This document shows, piece after piece, positions 1-62,908 of a stretch of DNA of 64,000 bases. The stretch is from NCBI GenBank assembly GCA_000091205.1, contig AP006500.2; one strand, written 5' to 3'. Source of the stretch: Cyanidioschyzon merolae (taxonomy: Eukaryota). Each line of letters opens with the position of its first letter. Position 1 is the first letter of the stretch. The translations under genes were made by a program, and so were the position numbers. The notes under the pieces were generated by a model. That model made no database searches. It was not told where the DNA came from and saw only the letters and a program-made list of their open reading frames with translations.

Positions 1-1019
1 CATTAGGCGCGGGATTTCCGTGCGGAGTTTCCGAGTAGCCCTATGGACCCGGTACAACTGGATTTCAAACACGCATCCGAATCGAGATGATATGCGACGT
101 ACTCGATATATAGTTCATGAATGATGGATACCACTATACAATTCATAAGTATAAGCCTCCATTTTCTCGTTTCCGTAGTCGTCATACATTTTCAAATCAC
201 AAGCGCTTCAAGTTTGCGCTCTTTCGGTTTCACGGCAACGCCAGTGCTGAATCCTTTTGCGACACTGCACTGACGACGGAGCGGTACGCGACATCGTCCC
301 TGGATGACGTGTTGACAGCCATACGCTGAACGATCCGTGAGCTTCTCACGTTCCATCACCGGATTCATTCGAAACACGAATCCCGCTCGCTTCCTGAGCA
401 CCCGCAAAGCCGCATTCGTTCCCAGAATGATTCCTGTCACGGGGGATACGCCCAGATGCTGCCGTCGATTCTCCTTTCGCGGAAACGGATGCCAGACGCT
501 GACTCCAGTTCTCGCAGCGATGGCGTAGCGTGCGGGACGTGTCACCGACTCGTACGAGGGCAGCGTCGACAGATCCACGATATTCGACTTGTTCCGCAGC
601 CCGAAAACTCATTCCGGTGCTTGTTTCATCATGCGGAACATCGCACTCCACAGATCCCCCATCGAATGGAGCAGCGTGCGCTTTCTTAGATATAGCGGAT
701 AGCGCTCTCGCCCAGATATGCGGATAAGCAATGCGCATCCGATGACCCCTGCTCAGACGCAACCTTCCCACATTACCGAAAAGAAAAATAAAAAACGTCT
801 CCCGCCAGCGCTGGAGCATATCAGCGTACACTGCGGAAGCCGCCAGTGCCGCCTTACGGACGCCGGGGCCGGCGTGCGCGCTCGTTCGCCACCGACCGAC
901 TCGCCGCCGCTTTGTTGAAACATAAAGAAACGCTGCCCGGGACGAGTGTCAGCGGTTGTGTTGCACGATCATCAGTGCTACTGAGACAGTTCGCATATTC
1001 CTCTAGTCTCGCAAGCAGT

Positions 1020-2552
1020 ATGGCAGTCCACAAGGCGTCTGCTCCTGTTGATGCTTCCCTCGAGGAGAAGCTGCGTAACCAGGTCGAGTTTTACTTCTCG
1101 GACTCGAATCTGCCGCGTGACAAGTTCCTTCGCGCACGCGTTGATGCAGATCCCGAAGGCTACGTCGATCTACAGCTCATTGTAACGTTCAAACGAATGA
1201 AGCAGCTGAACGCTACTGCAGAAAAGGTAGCAGCTGCTCTTGCGGGCTCCGAACTCGTCGAAGTGAGTCCGGATGGCCAACGCGTTCGTCGGAAAAAGCC
1301 TCTACCGCTCGATGATACGAGCAAGGAGCGCTCCATCTACGTCAAGGGGTTCAAACCAGGGGAGTCGCCCGCCGCTGAACCACCCATAGAGGACGTGATG
1401 GCCGTTTTTGAACCTTTCGGTAAGGTGCTTTCAGTGCGTATGCGGCGCAGGAAAGTGCACCGGCGACCGGGGCCTGTACCTGCTTCCGGTGACGGGGTTT
1501 GCTCGCCGAACGGCGAATCGTCGACCGCAACCCGACCTGAGAACGAGAGGCCTACCGCCTCAGAAACCGATGAACAAGCCGCAAGGCCGACCACTGCAAC
1601 CTCCCAGACTGCGGGCGACACCGACGCTGAGCAGTGTCAGAAGCTACGAGCGGGTGCATCGTCGGAGCACGAACTCGACGCCGAACGTGCTCTTGAGCCG
1701 TCGGCTGGTGGCCAGTCCCAAGACCTGGTACTCCATGATCATGATCGCGATCAAACGACAGTGATTTTCAAAGGCAGTGTATTCGTGGAGTTTGACTCCG
1801 AGGACGCCGTCGCAAAGGCACTGCAACGTCATGCGGAGCATCCGTTGTTGGTTCCCGGCACGCAAACTCCCTTTACGATTGAGCGCAAAGATCTGTATCT
1901 GAAACGAAAGAATGCCGAGGCGAAAGAAGCACGACGAGCGCGAAAGCTGCAGCGTACAGGTGCGCAGACAAAGACGGATGCGCCGTCAACGAAACCAGCG
2001 ACGAAACGATCCTTGCAGCAGGTTGCAGGCGATACAGAGAGCCCGTCGAGACCAGAGGATGCTGCTTTCGACGATGCCACAAGCCCGGGAACTGCTAGTG
2101 ATCGCGACTCTGCTGCTGGTACAGATACCGATGACGGCACCGATGTCTCGGAGGAGTCAGAGGAAAACGCTTTCGAACCTGGTCTGATTCTACGCATTGA
2201 AGGTCTAGGTCCCGCGGTAGACCGGGATGATCTTCGGCAGGCATTCTCGAAATACGGACAAGTCGGTTGGATCGACCACACCCGAGGCAACGAGGTTGCA
2301 CATGTGCGTTTCCTGGAGCCCGGGGCAGCCGCACAAGCGGCCACCTCTGTGAAGCCATCGTCGGTACTGGGCGGCTCCGACGTGCGCATGCTGGTGCTGG
2401 AAGGCGCTGAAGAGCATGCCTACTGGGAACGGATCCGGGAAGCACAGAGAGCCATTCGAGAGACCGAGAAGCGTAAGCGCAAACGTGAAGAGAAACGTCG
2501 CCTATCGCGAAACAAACGTCGTAGGTTTCGGAAGAGATCGCTGGAAGCATGA
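1020..2552 (+). CDS. La protein (La motif + RRM1 + RRM2, basic C-terminal NLS-like tail)
   Basis: La-motif signature EEKLRNQVEFYFSDSNLPRDKFL...GYVDLQLIVTFKRMKQL. RRM-like VIFKGSVFVEFDSEDAVAKAL. Second RRM LILRIEGLG...AHVRFLEPGAAAQA. C-terminal KRKRKREEKRRLSRNKRRRFRKR. Track ORF 846..2552 begins at GTG; first in-frame ATG is 1020. Confidence 0.8.
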   Translation: MAVHKASAPVDASLEEKLRNQVEFYFSDSNLPRDKFLRARVDADPEGYVDLQLIVTFKRMKQLNATAEKVAAALAGSELVEVSPDGQRVRRKKPLPLDDTSKERSIYVKGFKPGESPAAEPPIEDVMAVFEPFGKVLSVRMRRRKVHRRPGPVPASGDGVCSPNGESSTATRPENERPTASETDEQAARPTTATSQTAGDTDAEQCQKLRAGASSEHELDAERALEPSAGGQSQDLVLHDHDRDQTTVIFKGSVFVEFDSEDAVAKALQRHAEHPLLVPGTQTPFTIERKDLYLKRKNAEAKEARRARKLQRTGAQTKTDAPSTKPATKRSLQQVAGDTESPSRPEDAAFDDATSPGTASDRDSAAGTDTDDGTDVSEESEENAFEPGLILRIEGLGPAVDRDDLRQAFSKYGQVGWIDHTRGNEVAHVRFLEPGAAAQAATSVKPSSVLGGSDVRMLVLEGAEEHAYWERIREAQRAIRETEKRKRKREEKRRLSRNKRRRFRKRSLEA

Positions 2553-3373
2553 CGTGCCTTCGCGTACTGCACAACCGGCGCAACAGTGCCTAGAGCAGAC
2601 TTGTTACCGTTTATATTCGGTGTGATTCCGTTTCGTGGCGGGAGTCTGGATCAGCACTGAAACCTGGGAGGTGTTCCCAGGCGCTTCGAATGATGCTCGT
2701 CTCGTACGCATCTGAACGGTACGCGAACAGTGTGCGCCTCTTCTCGACGAGCAGCTGCCTTTTCGTCGTACAGCCATGATGCGTTTTGCGTAGCGCTTCA
2801 GCGGACTTTTCCTGTGAATGCCTGCGTAAAGTGTCCGCGAAGGATGCGGCAACGATCGACTTTATCGGGGTATGTCAGCGATGAAGGCCGCAGGTTCAAG
2901 GCTGGACGCAAGCCGGGGCCTCTGGTCAGGTCACCGGCAACCTGCCCGCTTGCCTGAGCGTCTAGTTCCGTGGATCCATCACGTAAACGCAGAAAGACGG
3001 GCAACCCTAAGGCAAGCCTTCTTTTCGGCAACGCTCGACACGTGCAGACCCCATGAGCTGCAAGTGGGTGACACAACCGCAGGTCACTGCGACAGCCAAA
3101 CACGGGTGACCAGGTGTCGCGTTCGCCTTGCGTGGTCCCTTTGGACTAGAATGCAGCGTGGAAAGTGCTCGCTTGCACCTATTGCTGCTCAACGGCTGGT
3201 GTTGCTGCACCTGCACCAACACCAGCTGCTGCTGCTGCTGCACTTGTTGGTAGTCTAGGCGACGGACAGCAAGCCGGCGCTTCACGCGATAGCGTTGTTC
3301 ACGTCTTCTTCCAAGCAGAGGTCACTGGCTTTCAGGAAACACCAAAATCGGTCGTATCCGAAACATTTATGCT

Positions 3374-17400: not shown

Positions 17401-17889
17401 TTTTTCGGAACGATACTAGGACGCTGCTGCGGGTGCTTGCTCGTCCTGCAGAGGCCTTTTGTGCGGTCCCGCAGAGCAGTCTGTGTCACGTTCGCTTCCA
17501 CAACCTGCAGCCACCCGACGGGAGTGAAGGCCGAGCAGGCGAGCGCGCAAAGCACAGGTGCGTCCAAGAGCACTATTTGGTACGTTCCTCGAAACCGGAT
17601 GTAAACGAACAATCCAGCTTGTGACGCTAACACCTCGAGAGGCCAACGTGTTTCAAACGTGTAGCGAGGCACGTCTCTGCATGCACCCGGAGTTGCGTTC
17701 GGACTGGAGAGCGCCGTATCCGACGCTGCGCGAAAACACTTGTCCACGTGGCTGCTGCGACATGAAGGTGCTTGGACGCAGTGCGTTTGACAACCACAAC
17801 CGCCTAATGGAAGCATCACATAAGATTCTGCATATAGAACAATGATCAGAAACGAATGAATAACTAGCAACGACATAGTGATTTTTTGT

Positions 17890-18470
17890 CGCTCTACGGT
17901 AAACGTTTAAAGGGAGAAGAGCTTTCGGTATTTTCGACAGTTTACCCTATGAGCGGAAGGTCCCGCGAGCCGGACGAGTCTGTCGGGCTCCTGCTTCATG
18001 CTCCATACAGTGCCGAGTGCTGTCGTGAGACCTGAGCAGTTCGTCCGAAACGCAGTTTATTCTGGGACTGGGAGCGGGTAGATTTCATTCGGGCGTCGCC
18101 CGTATTGCAGTAATCGTCTAGTATATCGCTTCGCGCTGCCGCAGGCAGCAGGTCTATCAGCACAACTTGCAGGCTCCCAGAATGATACCGAATGCCGATT
18201 CGGTCTTGAATGAACCATCCCTCGAGCTGACACCCTCTTTGGTATGGCAGAGCCGTTCTGCCTCCGTGCTGCATCTGCTCCATCTGAAAAACAAACGCGC
18301 AAAGGTGGGTGCTCAAAGCAGACTAGGTGCCCAGTGGAACATACGAAACGGCCAGTATATGCCAGAGGAAGTACAATTGATGGAACTTGGAGATAGGGTG
18401 CAGCAGCAAGATGGACGCTTTCTCACTTAACAATATCCATCCCGTATTCTGGGATCCCTAGTCCAGCGAA
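17890..18470. repeat. dispersed repeat family, copy 1 (second copy at ~59803-60390, same orientation, roughly 75% identical)
   Basis: Shared blocks: ctacggtaaacgtt. 30-nt identical core ggaaggtcccgcgagccggacgagtctgtc (17955-17984 vs 59867-59896). ttcatgct. cgtccgaaacgcagttt. gggcgtcgccc hairpin. atatcgcttcgcgctgccgcaggcagcag. caggctcccagaatga. tggcagagccgttctg...gcatctgctcca. Confidence 0.6.
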
Positions 18471-37116: not shown

Positions 37117-38314
37117 CCAGCAGGTGGCCCAACGCTGAACTAGAACCAATAAACTCTATTTGCTTCCTCCGCGAAGACGCGAACCTGTAAAGTGCTATGT
37201 GAGGATGCCAGTGCGCACTGGCACTTGCAGACAGCAGCGGCAACAAGCGCTGCTTCTCCTGGTTCAGTTGACTCCCGAACGCGGTGCCATGTGCATAGTA
37301 CAGAGGTATCAAGGTTTGAGCCATCATGGTGAAGCTCAACGGGTCTTTTTAAAATACGACCTGAGCAAATCTTGATCGAAGAAAACTTGCCGAATATACG
37401 CAACCCGCATCAACACCGTATGCGTAGACACTCCGTGGTTACGGGTACACAAAATCAAGTCTCGGAAAAGTCATCGGAGCATTTTGAGGCGGTCTGCTGG
37501 GTACAAGTCGAGGCAGACGCAACCTGCATTGCCGAAGTTTGACACACACGAACCAAGAATGCTCGCAGCAGTTTGTACACATCGCTTTGCAGCGAACCAT
37601 ACCGAAGCAATGGAGCTTCATCTGGAATGATTTCGTCAGCGTCTGTTGCTTCCCGATTCACCAGCAGTGGCTTTGATGCGCTAAGCAGGAAGCCAGTGCA
37701 GAGGACGATTGTGCACCAGGTTGCTTTGGACCCAACAAGAGTCCAGCATGGCCCGCGCAGTACTTGAACTCGTACGCGCGGTTGCGCAAGCATACGATGC
37801 ACTTGTCTGCAACCTGAGGAGACCTGCCAGTGTACCCTGGTCTGCAGAGGCGCGTTCGCATGCATTAGTCTCAATGCGGAAAAGAACGAACGGACACTGT
37901 TCATGGCTCGCTTGTGGACCCGTGGCCACCCAGAGAAACGACGGGGAACGAAGGCAAGCTAAGCGGGTTCCTGAGGGAGAAGCTCTCGATTCGAACGCGA
38001 GGACGTATCAAGAATTTTGGTGATTATGTTCCCGAGCCTTAAAGCGCTCATGAGAATCGTCCTCTCCTCCGAAAAGGATCGGGTTTCCACGAAATGCTTC
38101 CCCGGCAGCGTCACTGAAATCCACGCACCAGCGTCAGCAGCGAACGCGAATAATGCCACACGAACAATCCAGGCATACGGAATCAGGCAACTCGGAAACG
38201 TGTCATTCACGGCCTCGGAGATGTGGTGCTACCAGGAGGCACAAGCACAGGCAGCAACCGGAATCGTTGCAGAAGCAACAATGCCGGTACTTGCAATCAT
38301 TCCAATAGGAGTGG

Positions 38315-39698: not shown

Positions 39699-40570
39699 AA
39701 CAGTGAAACAGAAAATGGTTCACAACCATGGACGGTAGATATATCCACTCACCCGCTGACGTCTCCCGGCCTTTTTGACCGACCCTCTGCTATCTGCTCC
39801 AGCTTTTCCTTCTACTCTTCGAGCCTGAGAGGCTGCCCCACAAACTTGTATCTCGTCAGCCCCGGGGGTCTCGTCTTCAGCACCACAAATCTCCTGGTAT
39901 TGATGACAGCGCTGAGGTCCTGGTACACGAATCCGATGCGTTTGCTGCCGCTGATAGAACTCATCAGTGCAAGAATTCCTCGAACTCGCGCACTCTGTTC
40001 CACTATAGTCTCATTGTCGTCCAGCCCAACAAACACCTTTTCCCGCCTATTTCCCTACTTATTCTTTTTCGTCCTCATTTGCCCCGTTTCGCTGGATGAT
40101 TGACGAGGAGCGGATCTTATTCGTTGTTTTCCAGCAGCCAGCGACACAGTGCATCCACGATCCCCGATTTAGGCATCAATACCTATCCCCTTGACTTTTT
40201 ATTTCTTCAACTGAACACACTGGGAACGCGTCTTCTATAACCCGAGAAAAGTCATTTTTAATGAAACGCATCTGGTAACGGAACACTATTGAAGTGAAAG
40301 TCTATACACCGATCGTCTGTCTGGACGGTGGCTCGCCACACCGATCGCACCAACACACGAGTGGCGCTTGCCGCTGCAAAACATACCATTGTTGCTCATT
40401 AGGAGTAGGTTCTAGAGCTTGCACTCCTTGTACGTCGATCATCATCTATACAGGCACAGGTAATACGTTTCCGAGCCAGTGACTTTCCCAGACAGAATCT
40501 GCTTTTGAACTAGCTTGCTGAACGTGTTTGATCGTGCGCTTTGGGAGCAGGTACTTGAGCTTCGACGCTC

Positions 40571-55083: not shown

Positions 55084-57033
55084 TTACAGTGCGCTTGTGT
55101 TCAGCGAGGAAATATAATCCTTCAAGCCGACTAGACCACTAGTATGACGCAGTTTTCGAAACGCAGCATTCTCTATCGCTCTAACCTCTTCACGCGGTAA
55201 ACGCACCAGCGCACCTACTTCATCAATTGTCTTGGCAATGCCCGAGTCCAGACCGTATCGCAAACGCACAACCCTCATTTCCACATGATTCAGCAACTGG
55301 AGGGAACGCTCGAGATCTTCACGAAGCATGCTCAGCTCAATTTGCTCCTCAGGCGAAGCGCTTTCATGCACGATCGAATCCGCAAGGGTTGTGCGGTCTC
55401 GTTCCGAGCCAGACTGGTTGTTCCCAAACCGAACCGAGGATTCCAGCGAGATGGTCTGCACTGCAAGCGAACGCAATTCACGCAAGCGCTTCCGGGATAT
55501 TCCCAACCGTTCACAGATATCCGCTTCGGTTGGTTCGCAGCCCCGTTCGATGCTCAGGTCGCGCGCGGCTTTGCGAACGGCGAGTATGCGATCATGCATA
55601 TGAACAGGAAGCCGAACGATACGACCTTGGTCCGCAAGCGCGCGCATGACGCTCTGTTTCACCCACCAGGTCGCGTAGGTGCTGAAACGACATCCGCGTC
55701 GGTCGTCGAACTTTTCTGCCGCCCGAATGAGGCCGAGCGAGCCCTCCTGGATGAGATCCTCCAGGGGCAGACCTTTGCGCATGTATCGCTTGGCAATGGA
55801 CACCACGAGTCGGAGGTTCGCTGCTACCATACGGTCCTTCGCTCGCCGTGCTTCGGCAAGGTTCCTGCGAAAGCGCTCTGGGTCGACACCGAGATGCTCT
55901 GCGAGTTCATCATCCGTTGGTGCTCGATCCAGTGCCCCGTGGAGCTCGATTCGCTTGCGCTCCCAATGCAAAAGCCGTGAAATCTGACGTGAAAGCGATA
56001 CTTCCTCCTCAGGGGTGAGCATATCCACACGTCCGATCATGCGCAAGTACCAGCGCAGGGTACTGCTCTCGCTGGAACGCGCACGAGGGGTTTCGGGATA
56101 TGTCTCCCACGCCAGCGGCTCATTGTCGGAAGGATCATCTTCACTGTAGTCGAGTTCCCGAATGCTCGGTCCGTCATCATCCGCTGCACGTTCGCTGTCC
56201 TGGATGCGTTCCCACCGGGCATTCACTACGGCGGATGGATTCGTAGAGAGGGATCGACGTGATCCTTGTGGCAACTTGTGAACTGCATCATTCAGAGATG
56301 TTGGGCTGAGTCGTTGGTCGGCATTGGACAACTGACGTTGCCGAGCTGGCCGGACACTCTTACTTGAACGTGTTTTCGCGCTCGGAGAGGTAGTTTCACG
56401 CATATGAGCTTGCCCAGGCCCGCCAGGGTGCTTCGCCTCCCAGTTTGGTACCGGCAGGCGATTATCCACGGAAACGAAAGTTTCCTCCAAAGGGGTTTGG
56501 AGCGGCGAATCAGGTACTGCCGACGTAGACTGGCCAACACGAAGCGTTGCAGCTCTCGCCTGACGACGACGCGAGCTGCCGGTTCGCTCGGGCGTACGCT
56601 GCGCACCGGAACTCGCATCCGGAGTCGTACCGCTGTCCACTGACTTGGGCACATGTTCACGCTGCTCGTCGCGTGCCACGGGACCTAGCGGTGCTGGGGC
56701 ACAAACACTGTTCGCCTCCGGCTCAAGTTTTCTAGCTCCATCAACAAAACCATGCTTTTCGAGAGCGTACTCAGCGCCTAGGTCTCGTGATCTGTTCGTG
56801 TTCGCGCAGCAGCGACAGCTGCGCAAGAGGCGCGGCTCGGCCACAACTAGCCTCACACCGCGACCAGGGCAAGTCTTGCCGTGCTGCAACCGCTGCCCGG
56901 CACGCGGCAGATCCAGTTGCTTTAGCGGGCGCACCCTCCATAGACCGAGCGTCGCCGTGACGAAACCTACACCGTCGCTGCTTAGCCTGCAGCAGCGCGC
57001 CTCAGCGCTCGCGGTACGTCCCTGCGTGAACAT
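55084..57033 (-). CDS. nuclear-encoded plastid RNA polymerase sigma factor (sigma-70 family) with long N-terminal extension
   Basis: All sigma-70 regions present: region 1.2/2 (RWYLRMIGRVDMLTPEEEVSL...AANLRLVVSIAKRYMRKGLPLEDLIQEGSLGLIRAAEKFDDRRGCRFSTYATWWVKQSV), region 3 (RIVRLPVHMHDRILAVRKA), region 4 (EMRVVRLRYGLDSGIAKTIDEVGALVRLPREEVRAIENAAFRKLR). Track start 57045 is GTG; first ATG is 57033. Confidence 0.9.
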   Translation of the reverse strand: MFTQGRTASAEARCCRLSSDGVGFVTATLGLWRVRPLKQLDLPRAGQRLQHGKTCPGRGVRLVVAEPRLLRSCRCCANTNRSRDLGAEYALEKHGFVDGARKLEPEANSVCAPAPLGPVARDEQREHVPKSVDSGTTPDASSGAQRTPERTGSSRRRQARAATLRVGQSTSAVPDSPLQTPLEETFVSVDNRLPVPNWEAKHPGGPGQAHMRETTSPSAKTRSSKSVRPARQRQLSNADQRLSPTSLNDAVHKLPQGSRRSLSTNPSAVVNARWERIQDSERAADDDGPSIRELDYSEDDPSDNEPLAWETYPETPRARSSESSTLRWYLRMIGRVDMLTPEEEVSLSRQISRLLHWERKRIELHGALDRAPTDDELAEHLGVDPERFRRNLAEARRAKDRMVAANLRLVVSIAKRYMRKGLPLEDLIQEGSLGLIRAAEKFDDRRGCRFSTYATWWVKQSVMRALADQGRIVRLPVHMHDRILAVRKAARDLSIERGCEPTEADICERLGISRKRLRELRSLAVQTISLESSVRFGNNQSGSERDRTTLADSIVHESASPEEQIELSMLREDLERSLQLLNHVEMRVVRLRYGLDSGIAKTIDEVGALVRLPREEVRAIENAAFRKLRHTSGLVGLKDYISSLNTSAL

Positions 57034-57359
57034 TGCCCAAGCCACGTCTGTCTCGATGCCCTCCCAAATTCAAGAAATAGGAGTCCAGCTCGAAGAACCA
57101 AGCTTCACCAAGTAGCCTTTTTGAGCAGAGCACGTCCCTGGTTCGACAAATGGGAGTACCACGAACGACAACCGCCTTTCAAAAGAAAAACGCTGTCACT
57201 GGCCGTATACAGTCGTGGCGGCGAATGCGCGTAGACAAAACGCCTCCAACTGACGCGCAGACGCTTCCGAGGCTTTCTCGACCGGCCACCCACGACTGCT
57301 TCCAATTGTTTCTAATATAGTTCCACTTTGGGATGTTGTCCAACAATGTTTTCTCATGT

Positions 57360-58578
57360 CTACGCTGGAGGTCTCTTCTCCAGCACCGCACATCTCCGGA
57401 TATTGATTGCGGCGTTAAAGTCTCGGTTCACAAACTCCATCCGTTTCTTGCCATCGTTGGTTGTACTTACGAATGCGAGTAGCCCTCGAACTTTCGCCCT
57501 CCTTTCCATTTGCTCCTCCGTCAGCGGTCCGAACTTTTTTATATCCTCAGGGCTCCGCTGGCACTTTTCCATATCGACCCGCTGGAGTGTACACCTCAGC
57601 CCGTGGTGTGTATACGATGTTCGGAACTCATCTACAGGTATCGTAACGAAACGCCTTGCGCACTGCTTGTACGTTCTTGTCGTTGGAGCTGGCGTACACC
57701 CTTTTCGGGTCTTCCAGCGCCCTGCTCCGCGTGCTACTACGAGCCTCTGACTTTTATCCTCTTTGAAGGCGCTCATTGGAAAAATTCGCAGATGCACGCT
57801 GCCTCCCACCGTATAGATGAATACGTAGACGAGCCCAAAAGGGCTTTGTGTACTCTTTCCACAGCGCCTCACAATGAGCAACACGAATTTCCATGAATTT
57901 CAGAAACGCTTTAAAGTCCGCTCCGCGGCAAGTCACCTCGCTCAAAGCTTCCCGGTGATCCTTCATTCCATCGTTCTACGTCTCAATTTTCTTCCTTGCA
58001 TTCATGATTCCCGATTCTCGATAGTATCTCGCTCTCGAGAACCTCAACAGACGCACGTCTTTCTGACGCAAGTTGCCGTCGGTATCATCTCCCCCACGCT
58101 TGGGTACAGCGACGGTTATAATATTCGTGTTCCCGGGGTCCGCGCCACCGACAAAGCAATTCTCATGCACTTTCCGCGTCGCAGGACCCGCCTCCTTCTT
58201 TTTTTCATGCTTCGTCGCGCCAACCGTAAAGTCGTTAGCTTGCACTTTCTGTGTCGCAGGATCCTTCTCCTTCTCATCTTCATGCTTCGTCAGCGGCGGA
58301 ACTGGACGATCCACCTTCAACCGCCGATAGTGTACACACAGGGCTACTCCATCGGTTTCGATCAACCCAGTGAACAACTTTTGCTTGCTTATTTTGAGAC
58401 GTTTGAAAACGAAGATATTCTTCCAGTGCATCTCCCTGTTCTCACCTGTGAACTCTGCCCTCCTTACATCGAACTCGGGACTGATCTCCTTCATGATGCC
58501 ATGAAGGACTCTGGAGCCGGTAGTAACAAAATGTGACTTGATGGTGCACATTGGAACGACGTTGGAGCGCTTCCCCAT
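57360..58578 (-). pseudogene. TnpB/Fanzor-like nuclease core (RuvC-I through RuvC-III), interrupted by one frameshift/stop between 57884 and 57976
   Basis: Segment 58578-57976 starts with ATG (MGKRSNVVP...). If joined across the frameshift the two parts give ~400 aa, the TnpB/Fanzor2 size range. The catalytic triad residues D (GADPG), E (DEFRTS) and D (NRDFNAAINI) all appear intact. Confidence 0.55.
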
Positions 58579-59425
58579 TAGGGCCGCCTTCCGTCTCTCC
58601 CACTCTTCATTTTTTCGTCACTCAGCTTTATTTCCGCCTTGCGTTCTGGCGCTCGGTCCAGAAACGCGAAATAGCACAGAATGAGGCGATAGTATCTTTC
58701 ATTATCTTTTTTCAGCTCTGATATCTTTTCTCTTGAATTCGCCAGCCCCGAGACTGCACGGTGCTCTTGTATAACAGCACGGATTACAGAAGCTTCATTC
58801 GTGCTCCTGCGTGATTTCTTCTCGTCGACGAATTCGATCTAATCTTCATGCTTGCGATCGTTCGTGATACCGTTGATAATCGCCCATATTCCTTTGCGAG
58901 ACAGGCCCGGGTAAATTGCAAACACGGCGCATATCATAAAACGTTCGAGGTTCATCCTCAAATGCTTCTTCAGGTTCGTGAGGTACTTCATCGCCCCGTA
59001 TGTGTAAGTATCCCGGTCACCCCTGTATCGAGTACCCTCGAAGCGGAATTCCGCGAAGTTTTCGTGGAGGACGTGCACTAGCTCATTTTCCGTCCGCGTT
59101 TCCCCTGTGCCAAGCATCAGGTGACGAATAAAGGTCTTGTCGAAAACTCGTCCGGAATCTCGACTGTTTCCGTATGCGCCACGTCTTCGTACATCTCCCT
59201 CGCCATATGCATGACTCCTAAAGAAGCCTTTATAACACTCATGGGGTACGAATCGACACGGTTCCTGATAGCGTCTCGCAACTTTTCCTTGTAGGGATCC
59301 TTGATATGTTTACGAAGACAGGCGTTTACCACCATCTCGTCGTACTTTCGTCTTTCGTACAGCATGTAAAGTCGGGTCTCCTGCCTTAGCTTCTTCGTCT
59401 TCTCCTGCTCCACTTGGCTCGGCAC
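57360..59425 (-). mobile_element. TnpB/Fanzor-like (OMEGA-family RuvC nuclease) element, fragmented by frameshifts
   Basis: Four consecutive minus-strand ORFs in frames 1, 2, 0, 2: 59425-59117, 59117-58839 (TGATG stop/start overlap), 58578-57976, 57884-57360. Third segment: [16 protein letters not shown]...[17 protein letters not shown] (RuvC-I), then [17 protein letters not shown]. Fourth segment: VTIPVDEFRTSYTHHG (RuvC-II, DExxTS) with partial Zn-finger cysteines, then EFVNRDFNAAINIRRC (RuvC-III, RDxNAAxNI). The whole block is AT-richer than its surroundings. Confidence 0.65.
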
Positions 59426-59802
59426 TCTGTTTCGCTTTCTCTGGCAGCCGGCGAGGTTGTACCACCGGTATCATCCACTTGCTTCTCCATACGTTTCCAT
59501 TTTTGAAAAAGAACGCGCTTTGATCGCTTCTGCTATGTAGCGCGAAAAATCAATCGAATACACCCCCCCTGAGGATTGAAACACAATGGAACTGAGAAGC
59601 TATACTTGCGGCCACTTTCACACAAATACACCCTGTACGATAGAACAACACGCGAAAGATCAGAATCGCGTTTCCCTTCAACGGCGACATGCGCGTCATG
59701 TCTCGTGACTGCCGGATCTCCCGGGTGCGCGTATCGAGCGCACTATGTACCAACAAGAACATAGACTAACGATAAACTACCAACGATACAAAAATTCCTT
59801 TC

Positions 59803-60390
59803 CCCTCTACGATAAACGTTGAACGTGGGAAACCGCTTCCGTACTGTCGAAAGTTAGCCTTCTTGACGGAAGGTCCCGCGAGCCGGACGAGTCTGTCACG
59901 TTTGTGTTTCATGCTGCACTCAGTGGCAGGTACTTCAGTGGCAGGTACTTCAGTGAAATCTGAGCCACTCGTCCGCAACGCAGTTTCCTCTGAGACTAGG
60001 GGCAGTTAAGCTGTGTCTGGGCGTCGCCCATGTTGCAACTATCTCCGAGCATATCGCTTGGCGCTGCTGCAGGCAGTAGGGCTGTCTGCCCAGTTTTCAG
60101 GCTCCCAGAATGACAATTAGCTCTGATTCCGTGTCAGGTGTAGTATTCGTCGGGCCGACACCATCGGGAGTATGGCAAAGCCGTTCTGGCTACGTGCAGC
60201 ATCTGCTCCAGCGGTGTAGGCGCTGCAGCGGGTGCTCAGCGCAGGCACTCGGCACACGGTAGAACGTTCGAAACGATCAGTATACCCGAGATGAAGAGTA
60301 AGTAATGGAACTTGAAGGTAGGATGCATGATGATGGGCGCTTCCCCGAAAGCCATTATCTATGCCGCAATCTGAGATCCATGGTTCATGT
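59803..60390. repeat. dispersed repeat family, copy 2 (see copy 1 at 17890-18470), abutting the 5' side of the TnpB/Fanzor-like element
   Basis: See copy 1. Includes the local duplication cagtggcaggtacttcagtggcaggtacttcagtg. Confidence 0.6.
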
Positions 60391-61678
60391 AAACGTTTTG
60401 ATATCGAAAAAAAAATCGCTACCGCCATTGTCATCCCCGCGGATCCATCAACTGGTGATCGCCTCGTCCATGATCTGTTTCATTGCACAGGTCGCTCGAT
60501 GGACAAGCGTTCCTCAACTGCGCGCTTGAGATGAGCGATCGGGAAAGCATCCATCGATCTAGGTCCTGCCTCCAAGTTCCGTGGTGCATACGTCTCCTCC
60601 GAGTGTACTCGTTATCTCTTATGTTCTGTGGTATGCGTCGAGGCTGTTGTGAGCGTTTGCGATAGCGCGTGTAGCGTCGATGCGCACGCAGCCCCGAGGT
60701 CATGTCCACGAAGCGGTTTGTGTGCACGGCCGCCGATGTATTGCTAGTGAAACATGTCGATACAGTGGATCGGGAGTGCTCTGGATGCACTGGTGCTGTC
60801 GGCAGCTGGGGAATGGACACTTGTTTCTTCTCGGATATGGCAGCGTCGTGATGCCTGCAGACCAATTTCCTAGACGAGAATCGGGATTCATAGCATAGAC
60901 GCTTGAACGCTGCGCCCTATCAAACCGCTGGTAGCGGAGCCTGTGGCAGCGCGCAACCCTATACGCCCGCTCGTGCCGCGGAGCATGGCGCAGGCTTCAT
61001 GGTATTCGCGCATGCGTTCAAAAAAGGGTCCCGGAGTGCATCGCTGCCCGTTCCACTGAGGTCGCAGGCTCACCGATACCGCCTCATCGATCCTGGGGCC
61101 GTTCATATCAGTGGATGGAGGTGCTGCGTGATGAAACTACGCAGAGAGGTTTTACCTGGATTCAGACTGCAGCAGGAAGCACGCCTTCGTTCAGTCTCGA
61201 GAGTGCTTGCCTCAGCAGCAGCGCAGTGTCATTTGCCATGAAAACCTACGCAGGTGTCCCAGCGGTCCAGCGTCGCGAGAGGCTACGGATAGCAGCTCCC
61301 CCCGGATCGATGCAGATGCAATTGCGGCTAGGCGAAACCGATATCTGTGCCCGGCACGAATCGTGAATGTGGATACGTATACGGATGCATCCATAAGTGC
61401 GTCCATCGCTCGCCAAGGTCGATGCAGCGTCCGTTATTGCGCAAAAAACGACGATTCCGTGGACCTTCAGCGAAAAGGCGAGCTGCGCTCCACATTCCAT
61501 CTCCCCTGTGCTGCAGGCTCCTGTTCGGCGCAACGCATCTATAGACACGATGCAGCGCTCGTGGTAGCCTGTGGCGAAAATTCGATCGAGTTGTCTCTCA
61601 GAGACCACATGAATGGCCACTAGATGAACGCCAGGGGGTGCCTCGGGGCTCGCGCTCGCGACCCCGAATCCCTTTGGA

Positions 61679-62908
61679 TCACGATTTGAAGCGCCGCTCA
61701 AAAGCCTGCAACGTGTTCAAGAGCAGCATCGCAATCGTCATCGGTCCGACACCGCCAGGTACCGGTGTGATCAGGGCAGCGCGCTCTTTCGCGGTATCGA
61801 ACTCGACGTCTCCGACGAGACGATAGCCGCGGGGCGCAGACTCATCTGGTACTGAATTGATACCCACGTCAATGACAACCGCCCCGGGCTTAATCCAGCT
61901 ACCCTTGACAAAGTTCGCGCGGCCAATCGCTGCCACGACGATATCCGCCCGTCCGACCTGCTCTGCAATGTCCGCCGTCCGGCTGTGACAGACGGTAACC
62001 GTGGCATTCCGCTGCAGCAACAGGAGCGCCATCGGTAAACCGACGACATTGCTTCGGCCGAGCACAACGGCATGCTTGCCCTCTATCTTCACACTGGCCC
62101 GGTCGAGTAGTTCCAGGCAGCCGCGCGGCGTGCACGCGATCGCCAGCGGTGGATACAGCGGACTCTTCAAACACAGACGCCCGATGTTCAACGGATGGAA
62201 GCCATCCACATCCTTCTCCAGAGATATCTCTTGCAGAACACGCTCACTTTTGATATGCTCTGGTAACGGCAGCTGAATTAGAATGCCGTCTATACTGTCA
62301 TCCGCGTTCAGCCGACGAACCAAGGAAGTGAGCTCCTCTTCTGAGACGCTCTCCTCCAGCGCAAATAACAGCGAGTGAATCCCAACCTCCTCACAGGCTT
62401 TTCGTTTGTTCCGCACGTAGGTCTGAGAGTCCGTTCTTGAACCAACAATAATAACGGCAAGGCCGGGAACCCTACCGTATTGGTTGCTCAGTTCCCGTAC
62501 CCTGCCTCCTATTTCGTTCTTTACCTGGTTCGCTATCGCTTTCCCGTCCAGTAGTCGCGACGCTGCGCTATGGTTCTGCATAGCAACTGGTGGACCCAAA
62601 GACTGTACCGGGTGTTTCAACGTCCCTGTGTCTGAGAAACTTCCCAACTGGAGGCGAAGCGCAACCCGCTGCTCTGCAGGAAGCCTCGCGTGCTCTGCTG
62701 CTGCTGCTGCGAAGCGATAGCGTCGACGCCGCGAGCACTGTGCCGAGGCCACCCGCGACCCCGGTGTGCGCTGCCGTCCACTGCAGCGTTGCCCAAACCA
62801 GGAGCCTTGTGGGGTGAAGCCCGGTGCCAGGTACCGTGTTCCACTAGGACTATGTTGAAGGACAACGGGTGCAGTTGTGCGTAAGCCTACACGAGGGGCG
62901 TTTCCCAT
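61679..62908 (-). CDS. bifunctional methylenetetrahydrofolate dehydrogenase/cyclohydrolase (FolD/MTHFD) with ~100-aa N-terminal extension
   Basis: LLDGKAIANQVKNEIGGRVREL...PGLAVIIVGSRTDSQTYVRNKRKACEEVGIHS...IDGILIQLPLPEHI...DVDGFHPLNIGRL...GRSNVVGLPMALLLLQRNATVTVCHSRT...PVPGGVGPMTIAMLLLNTL. ATG at 62908. Confidence 0.85.
   Translation of the reverse strand: MGNAPRVGLRTTAPVVLQHSPSGTRYLAPGFTPQGSWFGQRCSGRQRTPGSRVASAQCSRRRRYRFAAAAAEHARLPAEQRVALRLQLGSFSDTGTLKHPVQSLGPPVAMQNHSAASRLLDGKAIANQVKNEIGGRVRELSNQYGRVPGLAVIIVGSRTDSQTYVRNKRKACEEVGIHSLLFALEESVSEEELTSLVRRLNADDSIDGILIQLPLPEHIKSERVLQEISLEKDVDGFHPLNIGRLCLKSPLYPPLAIACTPRGCLELLDRASVKIEGKHAVVLGRSNVVGLPMALLLLQRNATVTVCHSRTADIAEQVGRADIVVAAIGRANFVKGSWIKPGAVVIDVGINSVPDESAPRGYRLVGDVEFDTAKERAALITPVPGGVGPMTIAMLLLNTLQAFERRFKS

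Follow-up and report, generated by a model that had tools for sequence, protein, structure and literature searches.

The locus and its element

We analyzed a locus in a 64,000-nt stretch of DNA from the alga Cyanidioschyzon merolae (contig AP006500.2, assembly GCA_000091205.1); the whole of this stretch is hereafter called the window. Four consecutive open reading frames (ORFs) lie on the minus strand of the locus next to a plastid sigma-factor gene, and an earlier reading of the bare sequence (the original prediction) took them for pieces of a TnpB/Fanzor-like gene, either a decaying copy or a gene split by short introns. All four ORFs exist, at 59425-59117, 59117-58839, 58578-57976, and 57884-57360. 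Our analysis places them inside a copy of CMe-1A, a repeat of about 3.2 kb and of unassigned transposon class, whose single gene encodes a Fanzor1 protein, that is, a eukaryotic homologue of TnpB.

The Fanzor1 and Fanzor2 groups were defined by Bao and Jurka (2013; Mob DNA 4:12, PMC3627910), and the same paper describes CMe-1A as a Fanzor1 family of C. merolae. According to these authors, about 150 copies exist, each about 80% identical to a consensus of 3,169 bp that encodes one protein of 734 residues, CMe-1. They also reported that CMe-1A has no terminal inverted repeats, left its target-site duplication undetermined, and noted that its 5' 635 bp correspond to a short repeat named TE-N2_CMe. 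We took the consensus DNA from Additional file 2 of that paper and the CMe-1 protein from its supplementary files, and compared both with the window.

The comparison by blastn and by MAFFT global alignment showed that positions 1-3169 of the consensus align to the minus strand of the window from 60406 to 57173, where 86.0% of the 3,151 aligned bases are identical. Both ends of the consensus are reached, with 15 small insertions or deletions in between, and the copy spans 3,234 bp as against the 3,169 bp of the consensus. When the CMe-1 protein was searched against the window with tblastn, most of it matched with 72-84% identity (E about 0) and the frameshifted N-terminal part matched with 59-69% identity, so that the four frame segments together cover a range of 59-84%. 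The GC content of the copy is 50.7% and that of the remaining window is 56.8%; the AT-richer composition pointed out in the original prediction is confirmed, and the mobile origin deduced from it was correct. Furthermore, four proteins encoded in the window are identical to GenBank entries from chromosome 18 of C. merolae 10D, in agreement with the known host of CMe-1A.

No inverted repeat that pairs the element ends (57173 and 60406) came out of a repeat search of the window. Nor is there a target-site duplication in the flanking sequence, which reads ...GCGATTTTTTTTT at the 5' end and GTTGTCG... at the 3' end. A search for an empty site in relatives was uninformative: the environmental contigs that have the same sigma gene (99.4% identical) all carry the insertion. 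The element contains no transposase gene; both it and the consensus hold one long ORF, and the 916-nt leader of the element has no substantial ORF. The window copy shares with published CMe-1A the organism, the whole consensus length, both ends, and the absence of terminal inverted repeats. Its divergence falls within the published range (about 80% identity to the consensus), and it differs by nine disabling lesions and one extra unit of a 25-residue repeat.

These results indicate that the segment 57173-60406 on the minus strand is almost certainly an old, inactive, full-length insertion of CMe-1A, a Fanzor1-bearing repeat of C. merolae. Its main parts are as follows.

57173-60406, minus strand: full-length dead copy of CMe-1A, delimited by blastn and MAFFT against the consensus
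59491-60406, minus strand: 5' non-coding leader of 916 nt, corresponding to consensus 1-905 and 82-83% identical to it
57233-59490, minus strand: disrupted coding region of Fanzor1 (CMe-1), with the ATG kept at 59490 and the stop position of the consensus near 57233

The extent first proposed, 57360-59425, lies within these limits but is too short: the element also comprises the leader, codons 1-16, and C-terminal coding sequence of about 130 nt past the stop at 57360. The CMe-1A family, with its Fanzor1 protein, copy number, and age, was already published in 2013; it has many dead members, to which the element in the window belongs. The locus is an ordinary transposon pseudogene, neither a new gene nor a split gene.

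Lesions in the coding region

In order to define the state of the gene, we followed the alignment codon by codon along the ORF of the consensus (906-3110). Nine disabling lesions were found in the coding region, namely four frameshifts, seen in the alignment to the consensus, and five premature stops, seen in the codon comparison with it. They are listed here from the 5' end of the gene.

59441, minus strand: frameshift 1, a 1-nt deletion relative to consensus 956
59147, minus strand: frameshift 2, a 1-nt deletion relative to consensus 1251
58839-58841, minus strand: nonsense codon, GAG to TAG, E218*
58616, minus strand: frameshift 3, a 1-nt deletion relative to consensus 1783
57976-57978, minus strand: nonsense codon, TGG to TAG, W485*
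57776, minus strand: frameshift 4, a 5-nt deletion relative to consensus 2561
57362, minus strand: nonsense codon in the C-terminal tail, TTG to TAG, L692*
57356, minus strand: nonsense codon in the C-terminal tail, CGA to TGA, R694*
57314, minus strand: nonsense codon in the C-terminal tail, GAG to TAG, E708*

All five premature stops are single-base substitutions of sense codons. The homology to the consensus is unbroken, codon by codon, over all of the frame changes and stops, and the start ATG at 59490 survives. With four frameshifts and five premature stops, the window copy does not carry the intact ORF of a Fanzor1 gene.

The lesions also explain the ORF boundaries from which the original prediction started. 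A TGATG stop/start overlap is indeed present at 59117-59121, and it arises because of the 1-nt deletion at 59147, 30 nt upstream. A 90-nt out-of-frame gap was thought to separate the last two ORFs at 57884-57976. At 57978-57976 the TGG of the consensus has become TAG, but what follows is neither a gap nor an intron; homologous coding sequence runs on in the same frame up to the 5-nt deletion near 57776.

We then compared the locus with environmental relatives. Two metagenome contigs are 99.3-99.4% identical to the window, over 8 kb (L002) and over 4.8 kb (L003), and both carry the same insertion. The gene calls at the locus in these contigs are fragmented alike, with lengths of 98, 92, 200, 70, and 138 residues. 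Inside the element, the window and the metagenome sequence differ at 23 positions, none of which is at a lesion. The density of differences between the window and L002 was 7.1 per kb in the element, 8.7 in intergenic sequence, 3.6 in the coding sequence of the sigma factor, and 6.5 in that of its other neighbour, methylene-THF dehydrogenase (MTHFD). The density in the sigma-factor coding sequence is about half that in the element, although the value for the MTHFD coding sequence is also high. The lesions are real and older than the divergence of the environmental populations, and no constraint is visible. The decaying Fanzor copy of the original prediction was thus the right choice, in the form of a full-length CMe-1A copy with nine disabling lesions. 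The window copy would make no functional protein and probably decays neutrally.

Protein motifs and membership of Fanzor1

The reading frames were stitched into a conceptual protein of 704 residues, which was used for protein searches. The features recognized in the coding region are listed below.

58123-58146, minus strand: RuvC-I motif GADPGNTN with the catalytic Asp, aligned with VIDPNKRD of SpuFz1 in the profile alignment
57615-57635, minus strand: RuvC-II motif VDEFRTS with the catalytic Glu, followed by a degenerate zinc-ribbon region (THHGLRC...EKCQ), from translation and profile alignment
57408-57428, minus strand: RuvC-III motif NRDFNAA with the catalytic Asp, from translation and profile alignment
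58141-58290, minus strand: two 75-nt tandem units (25 residues each, 76% identical) just upstream of the RuvC-I Asp, found by repeat search
58362-58333 and 58038-58009, minus strand: two 10-residue motifs quoted in the original prediction, found by three-frame translation

The RuvC-type motifs that had been quoted for the ORFs are all present in the three-frame translation of the minus strand. One of them was misplaced: the motif TDGVALCV is conserved, but it lies upstream of RuvC-I, whose Asp is in GADPG. The order D...E...D of the RuvC nuclease is retained, although the three motifs sit in different reading frames in the window copy.

The stitched protein has 43 close relatives with 53-80% identity, all from JGI metagenomes, and two distant relatives (P0044 and P0045) with 23-24% identity, which carry the Pfam domain PF07282 (Cas12f1-like TNB, or OrfB_Zn_ribbon) with scores above its threshold (30 and 29.3 bits). 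A profile built from twelve family proteins was compared with all PDB chains. Its sole match was SpuFz1, the Fanzor1 of Spizellomyces punctatus (8GKH), with E=1.9e-9 over about 390 residues, and in this alignment the RuvC-I Asp, RuvC-II Glu, and RuvC-III Asp motifs are all aligned. A phmmer search of the PDB sequences with the stitched protein alone gave no relevant match.

Several observations weigh against this assignment. Profile hidden Markov models had been proposed as a check, and the only Pfam match on the four raw ORFs, that of PF07282 on the ORF 57360-57884, stayed narrowly below its gathering cut-off (16 versus 26.3 bits, E=0.014). Four close relatives (P0001, P0002, P0008, and P0013) likewise gave no Pfam match. 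Structure prediction, another proposed check, did not help: an AlphaFold2 model of P0001, a near-intact relative, made from an alignment of 12 sequences was unusable, with a mean predicted local distance difference test score of 35 and a predicted template modelling score of 0.24. An omega-RNA structure was looked for at the 3' end, where RNAalifold of the last 200 nt of 34 non-redundant 3' tails gave no consensus structure (-0.57 kcal/mol), with no helix near the end.

A further observation concerns the zinc finger. The founding paper lists a CCCC zinc finger among the conserved Fanzor features (Bao and Jurka 2013, PMC3627910), and this finger is conserved between SpuFz1, where it lies in the NUC domain, and ISDra2 TnpB (Saito et al. 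2023, PMC10432273). In contrast, the finger expected between RuvC-II and RuvC-III is absent throughout the CMe-1 lineage (P0001-P0043). Where SpuFz1 has its four Cys in the profile alignment, this lineage has H, L, L, and T (window 57591-57611 and 57459-57482); in the Cys columns of the alignment of Bao and Jurka (2013), CMe-1 shows H, C, a gap, and C. CxxC...CxxxC is retained in the two distant relatives, P0044 and P0045. We read the absence as a putative derived loss inside the CMe-1 clade, with membership of Fanzor1 by descent holding. Judging from the sequences, the nuclease competence even of intact CMe-1 members would not be assured, because their lineage has no CCCC zinc finger.

The tandem repeat at 58141-58290 amounts to an in-frame insertion of 63 nt relative to the consensus; there are two units here, as against one in the consensus. 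Among other copies of the family, which are described below, the 25-residue repeat (KHE..KKEA.PATQ.VQ.ND..V.A) ranges from about one to five or six units (L010, L016, L027, L040, and others). The variable unit behaves like a minisatellite within the coding region.

Neighbouring genes and alternative explanations

The sigma-factor gene lies at 55084-57033, with its ATG at 57033. It corresponds to BAM82413.1, 'sigma subunit for chloroplast RNA polymerase', of 649 residues. The neighbour on the other side, upstream of the sigma gene, is the MTHFD gene at 61679-62908 (BAM82414.1). Since the accession numbers are consecutive, the 4.6 kb separating the two genes presumably contain no annotated protein-coding gene. 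CMR165C (SIG3) is the sole sigma-factor gene listed on chromosome R in the literature (PMC3372377), and because it is the only one, the neighbouring sigma gene is most likely SIG3.

The 3' end of the element, at 57173, is 139 bp upstream of the sigma ATG (spacer 57034-57172) and not about 330 bp as first estimated, and the two have the same orientation. The promoter of the sigma gene must therefore lie in the 139-bp spacer or inside the element. This position invites co-option as an explanation: the 3' part of the dead element would serve as the promoter or 5' untranslated region of the sigma gene, or the element would give rise to a non-coding RNA. Such a role is compatible with a dead CMe-1A copy. 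The proximity and shared orientation agree with it, as does the age of the insertion, which is common to environmental relatives. C. merolae, moreover, has short intergenic regions. Nevertheless, the element shows no sign of constraint when its density of differences is set against that of intergenic sequence (7.1 versus 8.7 per kb between the window and L002), and Rfam has no significant match in it. We consider co-option quite unlikely.

A second explanation is that the locus holds a Fanzor-like gene that still functions, because short introns, programmed ribosomal frameshifting, or RNA editing restore its frame. The catalytic D, E, and D motifs can still be read and the ATG at 59490 is kept. 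In addition, the coding region is 87.5% identical to the consensus at the nucleotide level, with differences at 10.5%, 10.7%, and 16.3% of first, second, and third codon positions, respectively, and this excess at the third position shows past purifying selection. Such an excess, however, is expected from divergence in the source lineage before the insertion, so that part of the divergence arose there under selection; the rest is consistent with neutral decay. The splicing alternative of the original prediction, a gene with short introns of a length not divisible by three, fails at the frame changes themselves. They are deletions of 1 or 5 nt, five independent nonsense codons made by substitution add to them, and no segment resembles an intron. 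Because the homology to the consensus is continuous across every lesion, there is nothing intron-like to splice out. At least nine separate recoding events would be required, and no coding sequence is apparently annotated at the locus, as deduced from the accessions of the flanking genes. We therefore regard a functional gene as highly improbable.

It is scarcely credible that sequencing or assembly errors made an intact gene look fragmented. Single-base deletions, the most frequent type of sequencing error, do account for three of the four frameshifts, but five of the nine lesions are substitutions rather than insertions or deletions, and independent assemblies from several samples (L002 and L003) carry the same lesions and gene-call fragments. 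Accordingly, we retain the reading of the locus as an old, dead copy of CMe-1A.

The ends of the element

The two ends of the element carry the following features.

About 59745-60406, minus strand: TE-N2_CMe module (consensus 1 to about 647), forming the outer part of the leader; assigned from the 5' 635 bp described by Bao and Jurka
57173-57193, minus strand: 3' terminal stem-loop GCGTTTTTCTTTTGAAAGGCG, the sharp right end of the element, found by comparing the 3' ends of the family

The right end was defined by comparison of 47 non-redundant 3' ends of the family, in which the similarity ends after ...GAAAGGCG. A stem-loop in the last 20-24 nt forms in most copies: 78% of the cells are paired, as against 34-49% when the partners are slid. 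Covariation was not detected above the level of shuffled controls for the hand-specified terminal hairpin or for an AGAC/GTCT helix. The folds of single sequences over the last 95 nt had a mean z of -0.3 relative to mononucleotide shuffles, and in Rfam only a chance-level match to CRISPR-DR9 (E=0.45) was obtained. A reading of the 3' hairpin as Helitron-like or IS200/IS605-like is unsupported, because the element has neither a Rep/helicase gene nor a TnpA gene.

Beyond the ...GGCG end, many copies continue with a sequence like TTGATGGTG, TTGTTGGTG, or GTGGTGGTG (among them L018, L019, L044, L050, L061, L066, L001, L023, L041, and L074). These shared flanks could represent an extension specific to a subfamily or a preference for certain target sites.

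At the other end, a T-rich run (GATTTTTTTTC-like) stands just upstream of consensus position 1, at window 60407-60420 and in the 5' flanks of L025, L044, L060, and L061, which are independent copies. Such a run means either that insertion favours sites of this kind or that about 12 nt are missing from the 5' end of the published consensus. Within the leader of the window copy, a perfect 15-nt tandem duplication (TCAGTGGCAGGTACT twice, 59920-59949) appears as a 14-nt insertion when aligned with the consensus.

Other members of the family

When metagenome contigs were scanned with P0001, the near-intact relative, 71 loci carrying copies of the family were found. Only one of them, the locus represented by L001 and L008, has a near-complete ORF, of 722 residues from the first ATG. 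When the consensus was mapped on these loci, most copies matched it only from about 648-690 onward and diverged upstream of 648. At least three alternative, conserved 5' leaders are found upstream of this point, and the TE-N2 type, which is that of the consensus and of the window copy, is in the minority; the loci behind this comparison include L019, L022, L025, L028, L030, L033, L039, L041, L045, L048, and L067. In L027 and L028 the TE-N2 module is joined directly to the last 930 bp of the element, an arrangement that resembles an internal-deletion derivative. In L019, an ATG-initiated ORF of 801 residues (4143 onward) begins in the C-terminal part of a Fanzor copy (MERMSKVRGLLALV...NRDFNAAINIRKC) and runs out of the element into the sequence downstream. 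This ORF may reflect read-through by chance, or the gene call may be chimeric.

Two further pieces related to CMe-1A lie elsewhere in the window. A solo module of the TE-N2_CMe type is present at 17832-18463 on the minus strand; it is 79% identical to positions 22-645 of the CMe-1A consensus and has no Fanzor coding part. An older relic, at 39764-40012 on the minus strand, encodes an 84-residue C-terminal fragment that is 54% identical to CMe-1 residues 640-723, in which the NRD of RuvC-III has become YQD and an internal stop is present. The relic sits in an unusually long interval (about 5.5 kb) between ORFs ending at 37149 and 42633.

Comparison with characterized systems and meaning of the finding

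How an intact member of the family would act can be considered from its homology to SpuFz1 (Saito et al. 2023, PMC10432273) and TnpB. The intact protein presumably worked like the characterized Fanzor1, that is, as a RuvC nuclease guided by an omega-RNA from the right end of the element. Such a nuclease would cut DNA matching the sequence that flanks this right end, and the cutting would favour retention or spread of the element.

CMe-1 shares with SpuFz1 the D/E/D motifs and the carriage as single-gene cargo of a transposon. The overall identity between the two is low, about 20-25%, and, whereas omega-RNA and cleavage have been demonstrated for SpuFz1 (PMC10432273), CMe-1 is known here from its sequence. 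With the bacterial TnpB of IS200/IS605 and IS607 elements, such as ISDra2, the family has in common the split RuvC fold, the order of the motifs, and carriage by a mobile element, and by analogy it may also share the presumed role of an RNA-guided nuclease that favours retention. Unlike those elements, CMe-1A is eukaryotic and nuclear and has no TnpA partner gene (Y1 HUH or serine recombinase). Its protein also differs from TnpB in having a long helix-rich N-terminal region with a lysine/arginine-rich N-terminus and in lacking a zinc ribbon, and the Pfam models of the TnpB type do not match it at threshold. The third relative to be considered, the 635-bp C. merolae repeat TE-N2_CMe, has no coding capacity. 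Its module forms the outer 5' part of the window copy, but most Fanzor-bearing copies in the metagenomes have other leaders in its place.

The finding has some practical consequences. The boundaries of the element are now set at 57173-60406, and the locus is best masked or annotated as a CMe-1A pseudogene, rather than as four hypothetical ORFs. For anyone dissecting the promoter of the plastid sigma-factor gene, it is relevant that 139 bp separate the element from the start codon. Individual copies are not treated in the paper that described CMe-1A (Bao and Jurka 2013), nor are the absent Cys residues of the zinc finger, the hairpin at the 3' terminus, or the different 5' leaders. The loss of the zinc finger, the hairpin-bearing right end, the alternative leaders, and the variable 25-residue repeat could interest specialists of Fanzor.

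Finally, we mention two separate speculative readings, which we think unlikely. In one, the window copy has become part of the SIG3 promoter region. In the other, the CMe-1 lineage lacks the zinc finger by nature and remains active as a Fanzor1 in some Cyanidioschyzon populations, where one near-intact copy (L001/L008) was found. Because the window copy is dead, neither reading treats it as a working nuclease. In a zinc-finger-less Fanzor1 of this kind, the conserved 3' terminal hairpin would be the guide-adjacent part of the omega-RNA. If this reading were true, the family would offer an RNA-guided nuclease from an alga that grows at pH 2 and about 45 C, and would serve to test whether the zinc ribbon is dispensable.

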